This document shows positions 9,849 through 55,979 of a stretch of DNA of 64,000 bases, piece after piece. Source of the DNA: an uncultured Alphaproteobacteria bacterium (GTDB taxonomy: Bacteria; Pseudomonadota; Alphaproteobacteria; HIMB59; GCA-002718135); contig CACLXJ010000003.1 of the NCBI GenBank assembly GCA_902610845.1, positions 36,069 through 100,068 on the forward strand, read 5' to 3'. The notes below the pieces were generated by a model. It saw only the letters and a program-made list of their open reading frames with translations, did not search any database and was not told the origin of the DNA. The translations under genes and the position numbers were made by a program. Positions within the stretch are counted from its first letter, which is position 1. Each line of letters begins with the position of its first letter.

Positions 9849-10967
9849 ATGATTAAAATAAATAAGATCAAAATTCATTTATTTAAGTATAAGAATAAAA
9901 ATCCAGTTTTATCATCATTTGGTAGGATGACTTTTAGATCATCTTTAATAATTGAATTGATTGATCAAAATGACAATAGTGGATTTGGAGAAATATGGTG
10001 TAACTTCCCAAATTATGCTGGCAGATATAGATTTGAAATATTTAAGGATTATTTTGCAAATTTACTTAAAAATTTTGCTTTTGAAAAGCCGAGTGATCCT
10101 TATAATTTTTTTTATGAAAAATTTAATTCAATAAAAATTCAAAGTGGCGATTATGGAGCTTTTAGTAATATTATTTCAGGAATAGATTGTGCTTGTTGGG
10201 ATTTATTTTCTAAAAATAAAAAAACACCTTTAAATAAATTAATTAATAGTAATTCATCAGATAGGATTCAAGTTTATGCCAGTGGTATTAATAGAGACGA
10301 GCACAAAGAAAGAATAAATGAGGCAAGAAATTTAGGAATTAAAAAATTTAAAATTAAAATTGGATATGATTTAAAAGATGATATTTTAAGTTTAGTATCA
10401 ATTGAAAAAATTTTAAAAGATACTGAAGATTATATGATTGATGTAAATCAAGCATGGAAAATAGATAAAGTTAGCTCAAATATTAAAGCATTAAATCAGT
10501 TCAGATATTATTGGTTAGAAGAGCCAATTAGTGCTGATAATTCTTTAAAAGAAATTATTAATTTAATAAACAATCATAAAAATTTGGCTTTTGGTGAAAA
10601 TATTACTCAAATAAACAACTTTGTTAAATTAAATGATACCTCAATTAAATTTCTACAACCTGATATTGCTAGGTATGGAGGTATTTCACAGATAATAAGT
10701 TTAAAAGATAAAATAGTTACTGATAAATTATATCTACATTATTTAGGTGGTGCTGTCGGTTTGATTACTTCAGCACATTTAATGTCTGCAATTAATCAAA
10801 GTGGATGTTTAGAATATGATATTAACGAAAATGCACTCAGAACTGATATTTTGAATCCTACTATAAAAATAAAAGATGGTTATTTATTATTAAATTCATC
10901 AATAGGTATCGGATTTAACCTTTCTGAAATGTCAAAAAATTATTTAGATCAATTTTATGAATTATAA
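9849..10967 (+). CDS. mandelate racemase/muconate lactonizing enzyme family (enolase superfamily)
   Basis: KxK (FKIKIG), metal ligands DVNQ, LEEP, GEN, plus QPD and His. Confidence 0.85.
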   Translation: MIKINKIKIHLFKYKNKNPVLSSFGRMTFRSSLIIELIDQNDNSGFGEIWCNFPNYAGRYRFEIFKDYFANLLKNFAFEKPSDPYNFFYEKFNSIKIQSGDYGAFSNIISGIDCACWDLFSKNKKTPLNKLINSNSSDRIQVYASGINRDEHKERINEARNLGIKKFKIKIGYDLKDDILSLVSIEKILKDTEDYMIDVNQAWKIDKVSSNIKALNQFRYYWLEEPISADNSLKEIINLINNHKNLAFGENITQINNFVKLNDTSIKFLQPDIARYGGISQIISLKDKIVTDKLYLHYLGGAVGLITSAHLMSAINQSGCLEYDINENALRTDILNPTIKIKDGYLLLNSSIGIGFNLSEMSKNYLDQFYEL

Positions 10968-45330: not shown

Positions 45331-46617
45331 ATGAAACTTGATAAGTTTTTCGATGAAAAAACTGTCATAGATATAAGTTTTTTTAATTTTTCGAATGCTG
45401 TAACTGCTGCATATTTTGCTAATCGAAATTTAGAGGTTCTAAGAGTTAATAAAAATTTTAAAAAATTCTTTCCTATTCTTAAAACAGTAAATAATATTCC
45501 TTTCACAAGTATTTTAGAACAGCTTGGAGTTGCAGATGAATATATTAAAAATTTTCAACAAAATTTAGAAAAAAATGGTTTTGTTATTATTCCAAAAATA
45601 GAAATCAAAATTGGTGATGAAATTAAAGTATATTCTTTACTTTCTACTTATACTGAAAACAAAGATTTCACTTTTTTAAATGGTATTCAAGGACAATTTG
45701 TGGATCGAACAGATGAATATAACCTTCGAAGGGAGAAGGAAGAATTACTTGATCAAAAATTAAGAGATAGAGAATTGATTGAAGAAAAAACTAAAAGATT
45801 AGAAAATATTGCTAATAGATTATCAAAATATCTTTCACCTCAAGTATATAAATCTATTTTTGATGAAGAAGAGTCAGGTAAAAAAACAAAAGAAAGCTAT
45901 GTCAGAAAAAATTTAACAATATTTTTCTCTGATATTGTGAATTTTACTGATTTATCTGATTCATTAGAAGCAGAAAAACTTGCTCTAATTTTAAATAATT
46001 ATCTAAGTGAAATGAGTTTAATTGCGATAAATTCAAATGCTACGATTGATAAATTTATAGGTGATGCAATTCTTTCCTTTCATGGTGCTCCTGAAACACT
46101 AGGTGATGAAAATGATGCTGTAAATTGCATAAGTATGGCATTAGAAATGAAAGAACGAGTTGCTGAGCTTCAGTCATTTTGGACTAGACAAGGTGTCAAA
46201 GATGGATTGAAGGTAAGATATGGTATTTCTTCTGGTTTTGTAAATGTTGGAGATTTTGGATCTAGTATAATGAGTGATTATACAGCTATAGGATCTTCTG
46301 TAAATTTAGCCTCTAGATTACAATCTATTGCTCCAGAAAATGAAATTATAATCTCTGATACGACATATAATTTAGTCAAAAATCAAATAAATTGCAAAGA
46401 GTATGAAGAAATAATCCCTAAAGGTTTTGTAAGACCCGTTAAAACTTACAAAGTAATTAGTTTTAAAAATAAAACTAATATTAAAACAAAAAAATCATAT
46501 TCAAAAAAAGGAAACCACGTGGATATTCAAATATTTGATAGTTCCGACATGAAAGCTGCAATTAAAGAATTAAAAAAACTTCAAGAAGATTTTAGTATAG
46601 AAATTGATGAAGAGTAG
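45331..46617 (+). CDS. class III adenylate cyclase with N-terminal PAS-like region and coiled coil
   Basis: FSDIVNFT, IDKFIGD and YTAIGSSVNLASRL motifs (ATP-specifying Lys and Thr). Confidence 0.9.
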   Translation: MKLDKFFDEKTVIDISFFNFSNAVTAAYFANRNLEVLRVNKNFKKFFPILKTVNNIPFTSILEQLGVADEYIKNFQQNLEKNGFVIIPKIEIKIGDEIKVYSLLSTYTENKDFTFLNGIQGQFVDRTDEYNLRREKEELLDQKLRDRELIEEKTKRLENIANRLSKYLSPQVYKSIFDEEESGKKTKESYVRKNLTIFFSDIVNFTDLSDSLEAEKLALILNNYLSEMSLIAINSNATIDKFIGDAILSFHGAPETLGDENDAVNCISMALEMKERVAELQSFWTRQGVKDGLKVRYGISSGFVNVGDFGSSIMSDYTAIGSSVNLASRLQSIAPENEIIISDTTYNLVKNQINCKEYEEIIPKGFVRPVKTYKVISFKNKTNIKTKKSYSKKGNHVDIQIFDSSDMKAAIKELKKLQEDFSIEIDEE

Positions 46618-46626
46618 GGGATTATT

Positions 46627-48297
46627 CTATTTTAAAAAATTAATTATTGCATTCTTAATATCATTAACAAGATTTTTATTTTCATCTTTAGATGCCTTAC
46701 TTTCACTTTTTTTCTTATTAAGTTTTAATTTTCTTTGAGCTAAAATATTTGCCACATAGTCATACACATTAGGATTTTTCGAAAAGATATCTTTAATAAT
46801 ATCTTTGCTTACTTTTATAACGATACAAGGAGTTTCAGCTATTACATTGGCAGATCTTGGTTCACCAGTAAGAAGACTACCTTCACCAACAAAATCTCCA
46901 ACACCAAGTTTGGCTAAAAATACTTTCTCTTTGTTTTCATTATCTAAATAAACAGATACTACACCGTCATTTATAACGTAAAGAGAATCTCCAGAGTCAT
47001 TTTGATTAATAATGTAATCATCTTTTTCAAAATGGAGCCTTACTGCATTTTCAGCAATTTCATCTAAATCTTCAGAATTTAAAGACATAAAAATAGGAAT
47101 TTTTTGAAGTAGAACTCTATTTTTTATTGACTCATTATAAGGATTAAATTCGCTAACTTGCCTTTTTTCAAAATCTTCTCGACTTCTATGTGTATCAAGA
47201 GCATGCAGTCCTGTATCTTCTTCAAGTTTTCCATAAAGTTTTCCAGCAGACATTTGAACACCTGCATGTCTTAAGGTTTTATGTATTTCCATCATAACAC
47301 TATCTTGCATCGAATTTTTTAAAATCCTTTTTGTGCAATCAAAAGCAACAACAAATTCTAATCCAAATTCATTAGCGCCTATAAAACGGACCCACTGTAA
47401 ATTTAATTGTTCTCTTCCATCAACTGGTTTAGCTTTTTTAAGAGCATTATAAAGTAACTTAGAGATATTTTCTGGATCATGAGAGGGGTGAAAATATAGT
47501 TTATTAAAAATATGGAACCCTTCACTCATTTTCTCTTTATCTTGCTTGCTCCAATTTGTTAAAATGGAATCTGCAACTATTTCATTCGGAATTATTACTT
47601 CAGTATTCTGAAATGTTCTTATTCTTGTACTTCTCCAGGTAATATTTTCTACATAACCTGTTTTATCATCAACAGTAATCCAATCATTTATAGAAAATGG
47701 TCTTTCAATATTTACAAAAATTCCTTTAATTAAATCTGATAAGCTTGATTGTAAAGAAAGAGCAATAGCAGCAAAAACTATACCACCTGCAGCAAGTATA
47801 CTTGTAAGCTCTAAATTAAAAACAAAAGATAAAACTAAAAATGAAGGTATGGCAAATAATAAAAACTGAAAAAGAAATGTTATTATCTCAGGTATTGTTG
47901 TTCCTGATTTTTCATTTAGTGATAATACTTCGTATTTATAAAACATCATTATGAATATTGATGGAATAAAATATAAAGTTATCAGTAAAATTTTATTTAT
48001 AAAGTTGCTTATAGATTGATTAATTAAAAAAAATTCCTTTTGAATAACTATATCATAAGAAAAATTTACCATTAGATATGATAAAATAGGAAGTATAATT
48101 ATAGTAATAAATACTCGTGTAAATTTCTTTAATTTATTTAGTTGTATTACAGATCCAATAATGAATAGAGAAATGAGTATATATAAAGAATTTAAAGTAA
48201 CAGCATTATTATAAAATAACAGAATAGATAAAATACATAATAAGCTTATTAAAATTATGCTAATCTTAGACAGTAGGTAAAAAATGTTAATTTTCAT
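46627..48297 (-). CDS. MscS-family channel with C-terminal cyclic nucleotide-binding domain
   Basis: ERPFSINDWI and ITWRST (MscS); GDSLYVI, GEGSLL and PRSANV (cNMP-binding). Confidence 0.9.
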   Translation of the reverse strand: MKINIFYLLSKISIILISLLCILSILLFYNNAVTLNSLYILISLFIIGSVIQLNKLKKFTRVFITIIILPILSYLMVNFSYDIVIQKEFFLINQSISNFINKILLITLYFIPSIFIMMFYKYEVLSLNEKSGTTIPEIITFLFQFLLFAIPSFLVLSFVFNLELTSILAAGGIVFAAIALSLQSSLSDLIKGIFVNIERPFSINDWITVDDKTGYVENITWRSTRIRTFQNTEVIIPNEIVADSILTNWSKQDKEKMSEGFHIFNKLYFHPSHDPENISKLLYNALKKAKPVDGREQLNLQWVRFIGANEFGLEFVVAFDCTKRILKNSMQDSVMMEIHKTLRHAGVQMSAGKLYGKLEEDTGLHALDTHRSREDFEKRQVSEFNPYNESIKNRVLLQKIPIFMSLNSEDLDEIAENAVRLHFEKDDYIINQNDSGDSLYVINDGVVSVYLDNENKEKVFLAKLGVGDFVGEGSLLTGEPRSANVIAETPCIVIKVSKDIIKDIFSKNPNVYDYVANILAQRKLKLNKKKSESKASKDENKNLVNDIKNAIINFLK

Positions 48298-48331
48298 TTT
48301 GTAATTTTTGCTATAAAGAATTTATATATAA

Positions 48332-49075
48332 ATGAATTCATTTTCAAAGTATTTATTCGAACACTTACATTTTGGTCTAGAAGAAAAGGATTTTACATTA
48401 ATTGAAAAAATCATATTCTTTCTAATCATATTGAACTGCGTTTTTGTTGTTATTGAGTCAGAAAAATTGATTTATGAACAATATTCTGAGCTCTTTAACT
48501 CAGCAAAACTGTTTTTTGGTATAATATTTTTAATTGAATATATTTGTAGATTAATTGCTGTTGATCAAATAGATAAATTTAAAGGATTCAATGGAAAGGT
48601 AAAATATATTTTTACATTACCGGCTTTAATTGATGCAATAGCACTTATTCCATTATTTTTGATTGGTATCAATGAGGGTTTCTTAGTAAGATTATTAAGA
48701 GCCATAAGAATATTTAGTATTCTTCGTTTTGGACGTTTTAGTGAGTCAGTAGATTTTATACTTCATGCAATATATGACAGAAGGCATGAATTATTTTTTT
48801 CACTACTTCTTACTTTAAGTTTGATGTTATTGTCGGCAACATTACTTTATGTCGTTGAAGGTGATTTACAGCCTGAAGCTTTCGGATCAATTCCAAGAGC
48901 TTTATGGGTTAGTTCTGCGGCTTTATTATCCACTGGTTATGGTGATTATACACCTATTACATTTTTAGGTAGATTTGCAGCAGTATGCACTGCATTATTT
49001 GGAATAGGGGCTGTTGCATTACCTGCAGGTATATTAGCAAGTGCCTTTACAGAAAGAAAAAGAAAAAAATATTAA
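48332..49075 (+). CDS. 6-TM voltage-gated-type potassium channel protein
   Basis: S4-like RLLRAIRIFSILR, pore GYGD, PAGILAS motif. Confidence 0.85.
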   Translation: MNSFSKYLFEHLHFGLEEKDFTLIEKIIFFLIILNCVFVVIESEKLIYEQYSELFNSAKLFFGIIFLIEYICRLIAVDQIDKFKGFNGKVKYIFTLPALIDAIALIPLFLIGINEGFLVRLLRAIRIFSILRFGRFSESVDFILHAIYDRRHELFFSLLLTLSLMLLSATLLYVVEGDLQPEAFGSIPRALWVSSAALLSTGYGDYTPITFLGRFAAVCTALFGIGAVALPAGILASAFTERKRKKY

Positions 49076-50901
49076 GCTGATTTTTCAACAATTTTAATAT
49101 TTGGAAACATTTTATTTGAAAATTCTAATAAATTATTATGTTTTTCATCCCCAGGTCTAAAATGTATATTGTTAACAGTCTTTTCCCAATTTATTTCTTT
49201 AAAATCATTTTCATACTTTTGATAGATAGGGTGATCTTTTACTTTACTTATATCTTCATTTTTAGAAATAGAAAATAAAATCATTAACCATGTAGAAGCT
49301 CCCAAATATTGAATTTTTTCACCCCATGAAATACACTTTTCAAAATCTTCTTTACAAAAGTAACCTATGGTTAATGCGTCATAACGAGAGCATGAAGTTG
49401 CAGCACCTTGAGGAATTGGATCAAGTTCTAATGCTTTATGAAGATGTTTTAATCCTTCATCAACATTATCAAGTTTTACTAAACAAGTTCCATATCTATC
49501 AAGAATTCTTGGATCATTAGGATTAATTGAATGACCCTTTTTGGCATGCTCAATAGATTTGTTAAAATCTTTATTACTATGCGCTATAGCAGAAGAAATT
49601 CTCAGTACTTCAAAGTCATTTTCATCTGCCTCAAGACTTTTTTTGACGTGTTCAAGACCCATATTCATCATTTTATCAGGATCTTCATAATAACCTTTTC
49701 CATAACCTCCGCCTATAGTGCAAGCCTTTAGAGCATGTGCTCGAGCATTAGTTTCATCAGTATTAATTGCTTTATCAAGCGCTTCTATGGCTTTTAAATT
49801 ATTATCTTTTCCAGATCTCACGTGATGATAGGTTCCTTTTATTAACCATTCATAAGAATTTAAATTTTCTGAAGGCTTTCTTTTAATTCTTTGCAAACTG
49901 CTTATTTCAATATTACCTAACAACTGTCGAGACATTTTCATCACAATTTCATCTTGTAAATCAAAAATATCTTCTATTACTCGATCGTATTTTTCACCCC
50001 ATAGATTTGAACCGTCACTAGCATCTGTTAAGTCAACACTTACTCGTATTCTTTTACCTGCAGATCTTATGTTACCTCCAATTAAATAATCAACAGAATG
50101 TTTTTTTGCAAATCCAAGTGCGTCTTCATCACTCTTTTTAAAATCCATAGATGTTTGATGTGAAAGTATTTCAAATTCTTGCATTCGAGAAAATTCTTGT
50201 ATTAAATCTCTGAAAACTCCTTCTACCAAAAATTCCGAATCTTCATCTTTACTCAAATTTTCAAAGGGTAGAATTGCTAGTTTAATTTTTTTAGCTTTAT
50301 TTATTTTAACTTGAGCTAATGGTTCACCAGATTTATTATTTGTTAACTTTTCCTCTTCTTTAAAGATGTCATCTTCATCTTTCAGTAAATTAGAAATTTT
50401 ATAAACGTCAAAATTTTCACTTATATTTTTTAAGTTCCGTGTGCCATCATTTTCAATCTTAGCATCCAATCTTTTATTGACTTGATCTTTAACAATAGTA
50501 GAAATTAAAATTCCTCCAGGTTCACATTCACTTTCAAGTCTAGCTGATACATTAACTCCTGAACCCATTATATTATCACCTTCAACGATGACATCATCTA
50601 CATGTATTCCAACTCGCCATTCTAATTTTAATTCTGTAATAGAATGATCATTTCTTTTATATATTTCATTTTGAAATTCTATTGCTGCTTTTAAGCAATT
50701 TACTGGTGAAGCAAATTCGCACACAACACTATCACCCTCAGTTTTAAATATCCGTCCACCAAATTCTATGATTTTAGCATCAATTATCTTACGACATTCA
50801 TTAAGATTGCGAAGAGTTTTTTCTTCACTTTCCTCCATATGTTTACTAAAATTCACACAATCAGTTGCAAGAATAGTAGCTAATTTACGATCAGAGTTCA
50901 T
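49072..50901 (-). CDS. adenylate/guanylate cyclase-TolB-like-TPR protein
   Basis: RKLATILATD, GDS, VNVSARLE; LAILPFEN; DIFDLQDEI; TPR-like repeats. Confidence 0.88.
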   Translation of the reverse strand: MNSDRKLATILATDCVNFSKHMEESEEKTLRNLNECRKIIDAKIIEFGGRIFKTEGDSVVCEFASPVNCLKAAIEFQNEIYKRNDHSITELKLEWRVGIHVDDVIVEGDNIMGSGVNVSARLESECEPGGILISTIVKDQVNKRLDAKIENDGTRNLKNISENFDVYKISNLLKDEDDIFKEEEKLTNNKSGEPLAQVKINKAKKIKLAILPFENLSKDEDSEFLVEGVFRDLIQEFSRMQEFEILSHQTSMDFKKSDEDALGFAKKHSVDYLIGGNIRSAGKRIRVSVDLTDASDGSNLWGEKYDRVIEDIFDLQDEIVMKMSRQLLGNIEISSLQRIKRKPSENLNSYEWLIKGTYHHVRSGKDNNLKAIEALDKAINTDETNARAHALKACTIGGGYGKGYYEDPDKMMNMGLEHVKKSLEADENDFEVLRISSAIAHSNKDFNKSIEHAKKGHSINPNDPRILDRYGTCLVKLDNVDEGLKHLHKALELDPIPQGAATSCSRYDALTIGYFCKEDFEKCISWGEKIQYLGASTWLMILFSISKNEDISKVKDHPIYQKYENDFKEINWEKTVNNIHFRPGDEKHNNLLEFSNKMFPNIKIVEKSA

Positions 50902-53485: not shown

Positions 53486-54553
53486 TTATATTTTTTTAGC
53501 TATACTGATTTCTTTTATATCTGTAATTTTTGTATATCTGTCTATCATTTGAGTAGTTTTATGTCCGCTCATTTTCATAATTTCATGAGTTGGAACACCA
53601 TTCATTCTTGCTTGAGTTATTGATCCAATTCTTAAACTATGGCCTGATATTTTATCACATTCACTTAATCCAGCATCTTGAGCTCTTTTTTTTAAAATTA
53701 AAACAAAGCTTGTGTCAGTTAAACTAATTTTTTTATTATTCTCATTAAGTTCATATTTTCGAATAGAATTAGCTTTATCAATTCGATAGAAAAGGGGGCC
53801 TGAGTTAACCATTGATACTTCTAACCAATGATTTAGCGATCTGACTGGACAATATAAAGCTTCCTCATCATTTTTTTTCTGTAAATAAATTATCCTGCCT
53901 TCACCTTTTTGATCAGTTTTAGAAAAGGGTATAATTATTTCAATACCTTCTTTGTCATATTTTAGATGTTCATATTTCATTCCAAGTAACTCTGATCTTC
54001 TACAAAAGCTAAAATAACCTACTAAAATTAATGCTCTATCTCTAATATTTTTATAATCATCTGTATTATAAGGTATTGAGTCTATTATCTGCTCAATATC
54101 TTTTCTAAGCAGTTCTTTTGCCTGTCCTGTTTTACTATTTTTCTCATCTCTTACAATAGCGCTTATAGTTTCTGAAATAGTTGGATTTTTTCTATCAAAC
54201 TGAAATCCACCTAATCTATATTTATAGGTTATTGAGGCTAATATTCTTTGTATTGTAGAAGCTTTATAAGCTGATGCAGAGTAGGGATTATTATTTATAT
54301 TTTCTCTTCCAGGTATATTGCTAAATCCTTTTAAAATTTTAGCTTCCGGATCTTCATGCAACCAATGCATGTAATTTGCAACAAGTGAATAAGCGCTATC
54401 TAAATCATCAACGTCTAGAGGTTTACATTTGTAATTATTTGTACAGTAATCTTCAAATTTTAACCAATCGCCATTGTATTTATCTCTAGTATTTTTCGCC
54501 TTAGATTTTTCTCTTAGTTTGCTTACATTATCATTAAGTGATATTTTAACCAT
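53486..54553 (-). CDS. Cre-like tyrosine recombinase / site-specific integrase
   Basis: RDRALIL...RRSEL, SKTDQ, CPV, GHSLRIG, SGH and RY give a complete R-K-H-R-H-Y set. Confidence 0.92.
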   Translation of the reverse strand: MVKISLNDNVSKLREKSKAKNTRDKYNGDWLKFEDYCTNNYKCKPLDVDDLDSAYSLVANYMHWLHEDPEAKILKGFSNIPGRENINNNPYSASAYKASTIQRILASITYKYRLGGFQFDRKNPTISETISAIVRDEKNSKTGQAKELLRKDIEQIIDSIPYNTDDYKNIRDRALILVGYFSFCRRSELLGMKYEHLKYDKEGIEIIIPFSKTDQKGEGRIIYLQKKNDEEALYCPVRSLNHWLEVSMVNSGPLFYRIDKANSIRKYELNENNKKISLTDTSFVLILKKRAQDAGLSECDKISGHSLRIGSITQARMNGVPTHEIMKMSGHKTTQMIDRYTKITDIKEISIAKKI

Positions 54554-54559
54554 ATTATA

Positions 54560-54587
54560 TATTACGATAATTACAGTTATCGTAAAT
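54560..54587. promoter_or_regulatory. putative recombinase binding/crossover site (dif/lox-like 11-6-11)
   Basis: TATTACGATAA-TTACAG-TTATCGTAAAT with a perfect 9-bp inverted repeat, separated by 6 nt from the recombinase ATG. Confidence 0.7.
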
Positions 54588-54714
54588 AATAGTCAAGCAT
54601 AAAAATTAATATATATATATCAGTATTATATATATAATATTTTATATCATTTATAATATCATAAACTAGATATAGATTTTCACGTGTAATAAAATACTGT
54701 ATATAGTGTATAGA

Positions 54715-55440
54715 ATGGAACAATTACCGCAGATTTCAGCTGATTCCCAGATCTTTGTATTAACGGGTGCTGGTATAAGTAAAGAGTCTGGGATTGAAAC
54801 TTTTAGAGACTCTGATGGACTTTGGAATAACCATAGGATTGAGGATGTTGCCAGTCCCGAAGGTTTCTATAGAAACCCTACTCTTGTCTATGATTTTTAT
54901 AATAAACGTCGAAAAGAACTAAATTCAGGAATTAAGCCAAATAGGGCCCATATTCTTCTTCATGAATTAGAAAAAACATATAAAATTCATATAGTTACTC
55001 AAAATATCGATAATTTGCATGAGATTGGAGGATCATCATCAATAATTCACATGCACGGTGAGCTAAATAAAGCGAGATGTATAATAAATGATAATCATTT
55101 GTTTGAGTGGACAGAGGACCTAAATGAGATGCATAAATGCCCTAAATGCGGTTCTCAAATGAGACCTCACATAGTGTGGTTTGGTGAAATGCCTATGCAA
55201 ATGGATGAAATTTATGATTTGGTCGAACAATCTAGTCTATTTGTTTCTATAGGCACATCAGGACAAGTCTACCCTGCTGCCGGTTTCGTTTCAATGTTTA
55301 AAGATATGGACAAACCAACAGTTGAATTAAATTTAGAGCCATCAAGTAATCAAAATCAATTTGATTATGCTATTCATAAACCTGCAACAGTTGCCGTTGA
55401 AGAATTTAAAAACTTACTTTTAAGTAATAAAAAAAACTAA
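54715..55440 (+). CDS. cobB: NAD-dependent protein deacylase (sirtuin)
   Basis: LTGAGIS, TFR, FYNKRR, TQNID, HG, RPHIVWFGE and GTSGQVYPAA motifs. Confidence 0.93.
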   Translation: MEQLPQISADSQIFVLTGAGISKESGIETFRDSDGLWNNHRIEDVASPEGFYRNPTLVYDFYNKRRKELNSGIKPNRAHILLHELEKTYKIHIVTQNIDNLHEIGGSSSIIHMHGELNKARCIINDNHLFEWTEDLNEMHKCPKCGSQMRPHIVWFGEMPMQMDEIYDLVEQSSLFVSIGTSGQVYPAAGFVSMFKDMDKPTVELNLEPSSNQNQFDYAIHKPATVAVEEFKNLLLSNKKN

Positions 55441-55523: not shown

Positions 55524-55979
55524 ATGACAAGAAAACGTCCTGATTACACTGAAGCGCGTAATTATTACATAAAAGGAGAGAGAAATGAGTACCCTACTCT
55601 TCAAGACATTGCTACAGAATTCAATTATTCTTTGTCAACCTTAAGAAAACAAGCAGCAAACGAAGGATGGCTTGCAAAAAGAAAAGAAAGGATTGGTCTT
55701 AAAGAAACAATAAAAATGAGAAAGGAATTTATGGGAAAAGCATCTAAGCTTACTAATGTTTCCTTTAATGCGATAAGTGCAGCAGAATATATAATCAAAA
55801 AAATTCAAGAAGATCAAAAGCAAATTGAATTAGGAAATAAAATCTTTGATGTACACATAGCGACAAAGCAAATTTGGGCCTTAAATAATGCTATGAAACT
55901 TGTGGAAAGAGGTCAGCAAACACTTGATGAAATTGAAAATGGACACATGTCCCCTCTTGATGATTTTTCGTTTTTATAA
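55524..55979 (+). CDS. HTH DNA-binding protein resembling the N-terminus of phage terminase small subunits
   Basis: Y..G...TLQDIATEFNYSLSTLRKQAANEGW..R pattern followed by helical segments. Confidence 0.55.
   Translation: MTRKRPDYTEARNYYIKGERNEYPTLQDIATEFNYSLSTLRKQAANEGWLAKRKERIGLKETIKMRKEFMGKASKLTNVSFNAISAAEYIIKKIQEDQKQIELGNKIFDVHIATKQIWALNNAMKLVERGQQTLDEIENGHMSPLDDFSFL

Follow-up and report, generated by a model that had tools for sequence, protein, structure and literature searches.

The locus described here raises the question of what separates chromosome dimers in a lineage in which neither xerC nor xerD is found, and whether one recombinase acting on one adjacent site could do so. It lies in a stretch of 64,000 nucleotides (the window) and comprises a tyrosine recombinase gene with a palindrome directly upstream, which a first-pass annotation had read as a domesticated Cre-type enzyme with an adjacent site for dimer resolution. 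Comparative genomics supports that reading through the lack of Xer-grade matches, the position at the predicted terminus, and the core distribution of the gene. We consider it likely that a plasmid-type resolvase of the Cre/TnpS family has been domesticated here for single-enzyme chromosome dimer resolution, probably with autorepression.

The recombinase and its upstream palindrome

The recombinase gene (53486..54553, minus strand, with its ATG at 54553) encodes 355 amino acids and is the sole tyrosine recombinase gene found in the window's assembly (G000; 1.08 Mb, 59% complete). Its product matches Pfam Phage_integrase and passes neither the XerD model (51.8 bits against a cutoff of 329.6) nor the XerC model (38.3 bits against 335.15). 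All 17 solved structures matched by the sequence are Cre or Cre derivatives, and an AlphaFold model (pLDDT 89) superposes on Cre/Tre structures with Z scores of 25 to 26 and an rmsd of ~3 Å over ~295 aligned residues, compared to Z scores of 19.3 for XerA, 18.6 for XerH, and 12.8 for XerD. A profile of 79 sequences from the protein's family matched P1 Cre at 99.7% probability. The catalytic set (R185, K212, H305, R308, H331, Y340) aligns with R173, K201, H289, R292, W315, and Y324 of Cre, with a histidine (H331) replacing the Cre tryptophan. R185, H305, R308, and Y340 do not vary among the 79 relatives, and the conservation of K212 and H331 is at least 90%. The Cre fold across both domains and the catalytic R-K-H-R-(W/H)-Y are both present, and the original description of a catalytically complete enzyme holds.

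Among annotated proteins, the closest relatives are site-specific recombinases of plasmids (1,997 plasmid records), with ~30% identity at best. Phage records gave seven weak matches, no close relative was found in viral contigs, and the protein atlas gave generic integrase clusters only. In a FastTree tree of 104 rows, plasmid-type enzymes enclose the recombinases of the window's family and of SAR11 (see below), apart from Xer. These two groups join at a support of only 87 and with long-branch warnings, and domestication may have happened once or several times. RNA contigs (from four read runs, as contigs) overlap parts of the gene, which is not proof of transcription.

Six bases from the ATG lies the palindrome TATTACGATAA-TTACAG-TTATCGTAAAT (54560..54587, no strand assigned), a lox/dif-like site of 28 bp whose 9-bp perfect inverted arms enclose an asymmetric 6-bp spacer, reading CTGTAA on the gene strand, just as first described. 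No second copy had been seen in the window, and the 28-mer proves to be single-copy across the assembly at up to 7 mismatches. Its 11-6-11 geometry, which had been likened to Xer dif sites, carries less weight: the outline is correct, but the AT-rich assembly contains 56 perfect palindromes of at least 9 bp around a 6-bp spacer, which is within chance, and we rejected geometry alone as evidence. Likewise, inspection bears out that the right arm differs from the XerD arm at 2 of 11 positions, but the outer arm bases vary among relatives while the CGATAA core stays constant. We therefore do not read this likeness, which is probably incidental, as descent from dif.

What lifts the predicted site above chance is conservation, not geometry. 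With the spacer left free and at most two mismatches allowed, the arm pattern matches 76 of the 116 draft genomes of the window's family (f1; eight genera). The matches listed sit at the recombinase start with the spacer CTGTAA, a reversed-pattern control matches rarely, and the intergenic DNA flanking the site diverges among relatives. Extra matches in some relatives have two mismatches, lie elsewhere in the genome, and have different spacers. Both arms change together in divergent family members, and three other genera of the family have sites with 7-bp spacers. Among metagenome contigs with the site, the gene adjoins it in 80 of 83, the other three being too short.

The central 18 bp of the site are identical to the core of SloxP, which the accessible text of PMC3082901 gives as the tested target of SCre, a Cre-type recombinase of a Shewanella plasmid. 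Read in this way, with an 8-bp spacer, the site has perfect arms of 8 bp in the window and of up to 14 bp in one relative. A CGA(T/G/C)AA-N6/7-TT(A/G)TCG palindrome lies 50 to 100 bp upstream of three of five plasmid homologues, and across the sequences compared the conserved core CGATAA-N6/7-TTATCG is a signature of predicted Cre/TnpS-type plasmid resolvase sites. Given the identity to SloxP and the presence of the same core upstream of the plasmid homologues and of a TnpS-like gene, the site is most plausibly a predicted lox-type target belonging to the family itself, not a derived dif. About half of such predicted enzyme-site pairs recombine on testing, according to the portion of PMC10250229 that is accessible.

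Some loci depart from this arrangement. L121 (G139:C21) and L441 carry the site flipped with respect to the gene, while the promoter hexamer remains on the gene strand. At the end of G093:C16 (L132:1500-1522), the locus ends on the first spacer base, apparently where the contig itself ends, and the gene starts another contig; either the assembly is broken at the site or DNA has been inserted into it. Among the rows listed for four read runs, in contigs, neither a joint nor a loose end was found at the site.

The minus-strand TTGACT at 54591..54596, noted in the first-pass annotation, is confirmed and conserved, matches the consensus, and is the predicted -35 element of the recombinase promoter; a candidate -10 hexamer would lie inside the site (54567..54572, minus strand). 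Promoter-like matches were not above shuffles (4 found against 3.4), so the support for the -35 element is its conservation. In SAR11 as in the window's family, site and predicted promoter overlap, and the recombinase is probably autorepressing, a suggestion based on the candidate -10 hexamer.

The divergent neighbor is a sirtuin (CobB-like) gene (54706..55440, plus strand), a conserved marker of the locus that is probably not part of the mechanism. Of 49 stretches compared, some of them from the same genome, 39 have it immediately upstream, and in most loci the site keeps its linkage to cobB and the downstream genes. The recombinase's neighbors are cobB and small membrane or redox genes, and no transposase or phage genes were found beside it in the window or the compared loci. 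A 151-amino-acid protein at 55524-55979 (plus strand) has a weak match to a terminase small-subunit HTH (Pfam E value of 0.007, below the cutoff) and no PHROG match; it occurs near the locus in 17 of the 49 stretches and may be a relic of a phage or a DNA-binding protein that was domesticated. Also near the terminus, at 45331-50901, a cluster judged by eye appears to comprise a potassium channel, two class III nucleotide cyclases, and a mechanosensitive channel bearing a cyclic-nucleotide-binding domain.

Some relatives carry altered cassettes. In G101:C2 (L124:6760-8090), cobB and the normal gene are separated by a paralogous recombinase of 39% identity that has an imperfect palindrome of its own with a 6-bp spacer. 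The left arm of the normal gene's site is altered there and its -35 element is lost, which looks like one cassette inserted at another's site. In G035:C6 (L123:6420-7600), the normal gene is swapped in place for a 40%-identical paralogue, and the site is changed on both arms. This in-place swap and the tandem insertion in G101 suggest that recombinase gene and site travel as a unit. The three genera with 7-bp-spacer sites (L115, L116, and L117 in G130, G132, and G131) have shorter, 31 to 34%-identical recombinases on a separate branch, and two of their sites resemble SAR11 sites. The window's family may have swapped cassettes more than once.

Distribution and position at the predicted terminus

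The recombinase gene was found in 86 of the 116 f1 genomes and in all eight genera, a few of the matches being partial or distant. A single-copy core gene would be expected in 86.8 of them from their summed completeness, nearly all matches have intact frames, and one gene per genome is the rule. No recombinase gene was found in nine genomes of 80 to 90% completeness. No gene of XerC or XerD grade was found in the 116 genomes, where the best score on TIGR02225 (the XerD model) was 69 bits; the XerC model was run on one f1 genome, and for the others the lack of xerC follows from searches with the XerD and Pfam models. Genuine XerC and XerD proteins exceed 200 bits whichever of the two Xer models is used: true Xer pairs in the sister family reach 206 to 260 bits on TIGR02224, and true Xer proteins of two other alphaproteobacteria reach 216 to 358 bits on TIGR02225. 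The ftsK gene is present in 92 of 116 f1 genomes (with the gamma domain in 34 of 41) and recA in all five relatives tested, while ftsK was not found in G000 itself, which is 59% complete. The family has a sole conserved tyrosine recombinase and both recA and ftsK, with no xerCD found. As a control, the sister family (f2) has Xer-grade matches in all 24 genomes, and its member G037 has an XerC/XerD-like pair with a dif-like 11-6-11 site. The search for xerC, xerD, and ftsK and the comparison across relatives, both proposed together with the original reading, came out in its favor.

Gene and site are located at the predicted replication terminus. The cumulative GC skew in G000:C3 reaches its maximum 8 kb from the site, and the corresponding distances are 8.5 kb in G086:C1 (400 kb), ~1 kb in G130:C7, and 3 kb in G132:C14, which places the site near the skew inflection, where it had been suggested to look for it. 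In G029:C1, the maximum is 21 kb from the site, and the contig ends 6 kb past the site. Gene orientation in G086:C1 also converges, switching at ~163 kb; most of the skew in this genome reflects gene orientation, and the third-position residual has no peak at the site. Skew at 4-fold sites was rejected as a terminus marker in G000:C3, being too noisy to use. All of these positions come from contigs of draft genomes. For the KOPS motif (GGGNAGGG), 34 of 34 occurrences on the site-bearing contigs of 11 f1 genomes with listed positions point toward the site, with both sides of the site represented only in G086 and G072 and the genomes being kin and thus not independent. In the control G037, the dif-like site (1,059,880) and the skew maximum (1,060,351) are ~0.5 kb apart in the 120 kb examined. 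Like the dif of XerCD systems, the window site is a single intergenic site of ~28 bp at the predicted terminus.

A homologous cassette in SAR11 and site copies in phages

A profile search of 301 alphaproteobacterial genomes found the recombinase family in 24, and two small complete genomes among the matches led to family f105, identified as Pelagibacter, Pelagibacteraceae, or Pelagibacterales (SAR11) by the source names of 5 of 10 proteins looked up. Pelagibacter ubique is listed as being without dif/Xer in the accessible text of Carnoy and Roten (PMC2731167). A tyrosine recombinase is present in 51 of 61 f105 genomes, none of Xer grade, and 28 of 30 fetched loci encode a match to the window protein, with 28 to 38% identity. 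A site of the form GATAA-TT(A/T)AT(T/G)G-TTATC, with a 7-bp spacer, lies just upstream of the gene and below a TTGACA hexamer, and it was likewise found in 51 of 61 genomes; ftsK is present in all 32 near-complete ones. In the complete genomes G242 and G370, the skew maximum is ~2 kb from the site (200 kb examined), while in three other complete genomes the terminus was placed by KOPS alone. Across the five, 67 of 81 KOPS point toward the site (45 of 46 within 300 kb), and the site is at the best-scoring KOPS position in four, the exception being G471 (7 of 13). As expected of a single-recombinase system, the site coincides with the convergence of GC skew and KOPS, with one of the five complete genomes weak. 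We rejected dnaA as an origin marker: it lies 39 to 45% of the genome away from the site in the five genomes, and no clear skew minimum was found at 60 to 340 kb of G113:C1, so it does not mark a sharp antipode. By these comparisons, SAR11 would appear to use a homologous cassette in the same way as the window's family.

Homologues also occur elsewhere. G369 and G289 carry them alongside xerCD. In G313, a 100%-complete alphaproteobacterial genome of 60% GC without XerD, the only match is a Cre-like gene (L180; G313:C1:283564-284475), which is not at a skew switch and near which no palindrome was found, and G313 was therefore rejected as a third lineage. This case indicates that family membership together with the loss of xerD does not force a role in dimer resolution.

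Copies of the SAR11 site also occur in phages. Viral contigs contained 80 loci with the SAR11 site core, and 19 of these were picked for near-complete arms (L292-L363). All 19 have a terminase small- or large-subunit gene within 3 kb (the large subunit in 15), and no Cre-like gene was found within 3 kb of the site at the 81 viral loci tested. A looser pattern gave 80 further loci with varying spacers, of which 18 have a terminase, 3 a Cre-like gene, and 59 neither. Terminases beside the viral site copies are closest to those of pelagiphages, and the pelagiphage HTVC106P itself has a near-copy of the SAR11 site, one base short, between gp67 and gp68 (L368:35403-35436), with no tyrosine recombinase match genome-wide. 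In HTVC106P and the 19 picked loci, the copy lies between terminase genes or next to them. HTVC035P has a looser copy, and no SAR11 site was found in HTVC010P. One viral contig (L358/L359) has two SAR11-core matches 1,064 bp apart in the same orientation. For the window family's site, the viral contigs gave one 18-bp match whose outer arms do not match and none with full arms.

The 19 viral contigs (within their 3-kb flanks) and HTVC106P carry a copy of a site without a recombinase of their own, in the manner of an IMEX, an element that relies on its host's dimer-resolution enzyme. By analogy with phage P1, and as a lead, a site close to the packaging genes could allow the host enzyme to circularize, monomerize, or integrate the phage genome. 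No host-phage junction was found among the loci and read contigs examined. Integrase-less members of the pelagiphages are called lytic in the accessible part of PMC8477408, which does not mention Xer.

Mechanism, known relatives, and rival explanations

We propose that RecA crossovers would generate chromosome dimers and that FtsK, guided by KOPS, would bring the sites of both sisters together at the septum. A homotetramer of the enzyme could then occupy the symmetric arms and carry out strand exchange at the edges of the asymmetric spacer, which would set the direction of recombination, to yield monomers. FtsK may either activate the enzyme or only position the DNA, and the bound enzyme would cover its own promoter and so repress itself. 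A plasmid or transposon resolvase cassette, consisting of a gene with its own site, may have settled at the terminus and made xerCD dispensable; loxP/Cre placed at the terminus can replace dif in E. coli, as the accessible text of PMC2731167 states. The lack of Xer-grade matches, the core status of gene and site, their position at the predicted terminus, and the presence of recA and ftsK in relatives together make dimer resolution the likely role.

XerS/difSL of streptococci and lactococci consists of one recombinase linked to its site at the terminus and replaces XerCD, with ftsK present. The window's family likewise has one site-linked recombinase at the terminus, with ftsK present and xerCD not found. 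However, XerS belongs to the Xer subgroup (PMC8138268, accessible text), whereas the window protein is far below the Xer cutoffs and groups with plasmid Cre-like enzymes, and the window site is probably unrelated in sequence to difSL. XerL/dif of Legionellales fills the same gap in a lineage listed as lacking dif/Xer: from the accessible part of PMC9765430, it is a single enzyme with perfect dyad arms whose site is used by a mobile element without its own integrase, features that all have counterparts here. In contrast to this likeness, the profile of our family gave an hhalign probability of 0.9% (E value of 0.06) against the Coxiella plasmid integrase, which we infer to be XerL and which sits on a long separate branch. 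XerH/difH and archaeal XerA share single-recombinase dimer resolution but are weaker structural matches (Z scores of 18 to 19 compared to 25 to 26 for Cre). With XerC/XerD-dif, the window shares the 28-bp 11-6-11 outline, the terminus position, and KOPS convergence, but it has one gene, symmetric arms, low Xer-model scores, and a Z score of 12.8 to XerD; the two paralogous recombinases and differing arms of that system were not found.

The closest likenesses lie among mobile elements. Cre/loxP and SCre/SloxP share the fold, symmetric arms for one enzyme, a site near the gene, and the 18-bp SloxP core, and Cre resolves replicon dimers. Yet the window protein is only 21 to 23% identical to Cre and the probable SCre, its site has perfect arms shorter than the 13 bp of loxP-type sites and lies in the gene's own predicted promoter, and its gene is a chromosomal core gene at the terminus rather than one of a phage or plasmid. 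Lox-type sites follow a 13-8-13 plan, and SAR11 sites have an odd spacer of 7 bp. The nearest system-level relative found is TnpS/TnpT-rst, described in the accessible text of PMC7157771 as the resolution system of Tn4651-type transposons. A Shewanella plasmid protein that we infer from gene layout to be TnpS-like matches the window protein better than Cre does (E value of 2e-25, 27% identity), and the region upstream of its gene has the CGATAA-N6-TTATCG core; the window locus, however, has neither a TnpT helper gene nor a Tn3 transposase, and its divergent neighbor is a sirtuin gene. The Shewanella plasmid in question also has SloxP, which lies 3.5 kb from the TnpS/TnpT-like pair and its same-core palindrome (L367:5707-7975 and 10255-10275). 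The system would work like XerS/difSL, is built like Cre/lox, and falls outside the Xer families. Single-enzyme dimer resolution as such is already known for XerS, XerH, XerA, and XerL (PMC9765430 and PMC8138268, accessible parts).

The enzyme might instead be an integrase kept by the host, with the site serving mainly for the attachment of islands and phages near the terminus and dimer resolution a side effect or absent. Variable genes do surround the locus in relatives, G101 has its second, 39%-identical recombinase in tandem with an altered left arm, and 19 viral contigs have a near-full SAR11 site beside terminase with no recombinase within 3 kb. An optional landing pad would not be expected to be retained as core in two streamlined families that have lost xerCD, nor to occur once per genome and never as a flanking pair, with cobB and the downstream genes still joined to it in most loci; no viral contig carries a full-armed site of the window's family, and the patchy occurrence, att pair or tRNA target, and mobile cargo of a prophage or island integrase were not found. 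We regard this explanation as unlikely. Slightly less probable still is that the pair does another job at the terminus, for example decatenating sister chromosomes or tethering the terminus for FtsK, with the palindrome chiefly an autoregulatory operator. The overlap of site and predicted promoter in both families fits an operator, and that role alone would conserve the arms, but it leaves the near-invariant asymmetric spacer, the intact catalytic residues, and the terminus position unexplained, and recombinational decatenation would be the same chemistry and a variant of dimer resolution.

The cassette might also be a selfish or relic plasmid or transposon resolvase fixed by drift, in cells that manage without dimer resolution, and both the plasmid-borne nearest annotated relatives (~30% identity at best among 1,997 records) and the in-place swap in G035, where the paralogue of 40% identity has a site variant of its own, can be cited for this view. 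That same in-place replacement by a working equivalent argues for need rather than drift, as do the core frequency, the intact frames in nearly all matches, the presence of recA, the lack of transposase or phage genes beside the cassette, and the same position in a second family, SAR11. We judge drift to be very improbable. Beyond domestication for dimer resolution in the window's family, we lean, with limited confidence, toward a broader proposal: that a natural plasmid-derived Cre/lox system replaced XerCD-dif as dimer resolver in two dominant streamlined families of ocean alphaproteobacteria, including SAR11, that the cassette can be swapped in place, and that integrase-less pelagiphages carry terminase-adjacent copies of the site so that the host enzyme circularizes, monomerizes, or integrates their genomes.

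No paper in the open-access literature searched assigns a dimer-resolution role to this recombinase gene, and the accessible parts of PMC3025954, PMC7858055, and PMC9865509 contain nothing on its role. Carnoy and Roten ask what replaces dif/Xer and, in the text accessible, state that there is no evidence for natural loxP/Cre-like substitutes (PMC2731167). The locus names a candidate enzyme and a 28- to 30-bp target for that question and makes it testable. If the proposal is true, a mobile-element resolvase has been domesticated for a core cell-cycle job, a direction treated as doubtful for Xer genes in the accessible part of PMC8138268, and the two families would be a source of numerous natural enzyme-site pairs of the Cre type, with spacers of 6 and 7 bp. 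It would also provide a fixed terminus marker for SAR11 and the window's family, and it would suggest a hidden lysogenic or circularization route for pelagiphages that are classed as lytic for want of an integrase.
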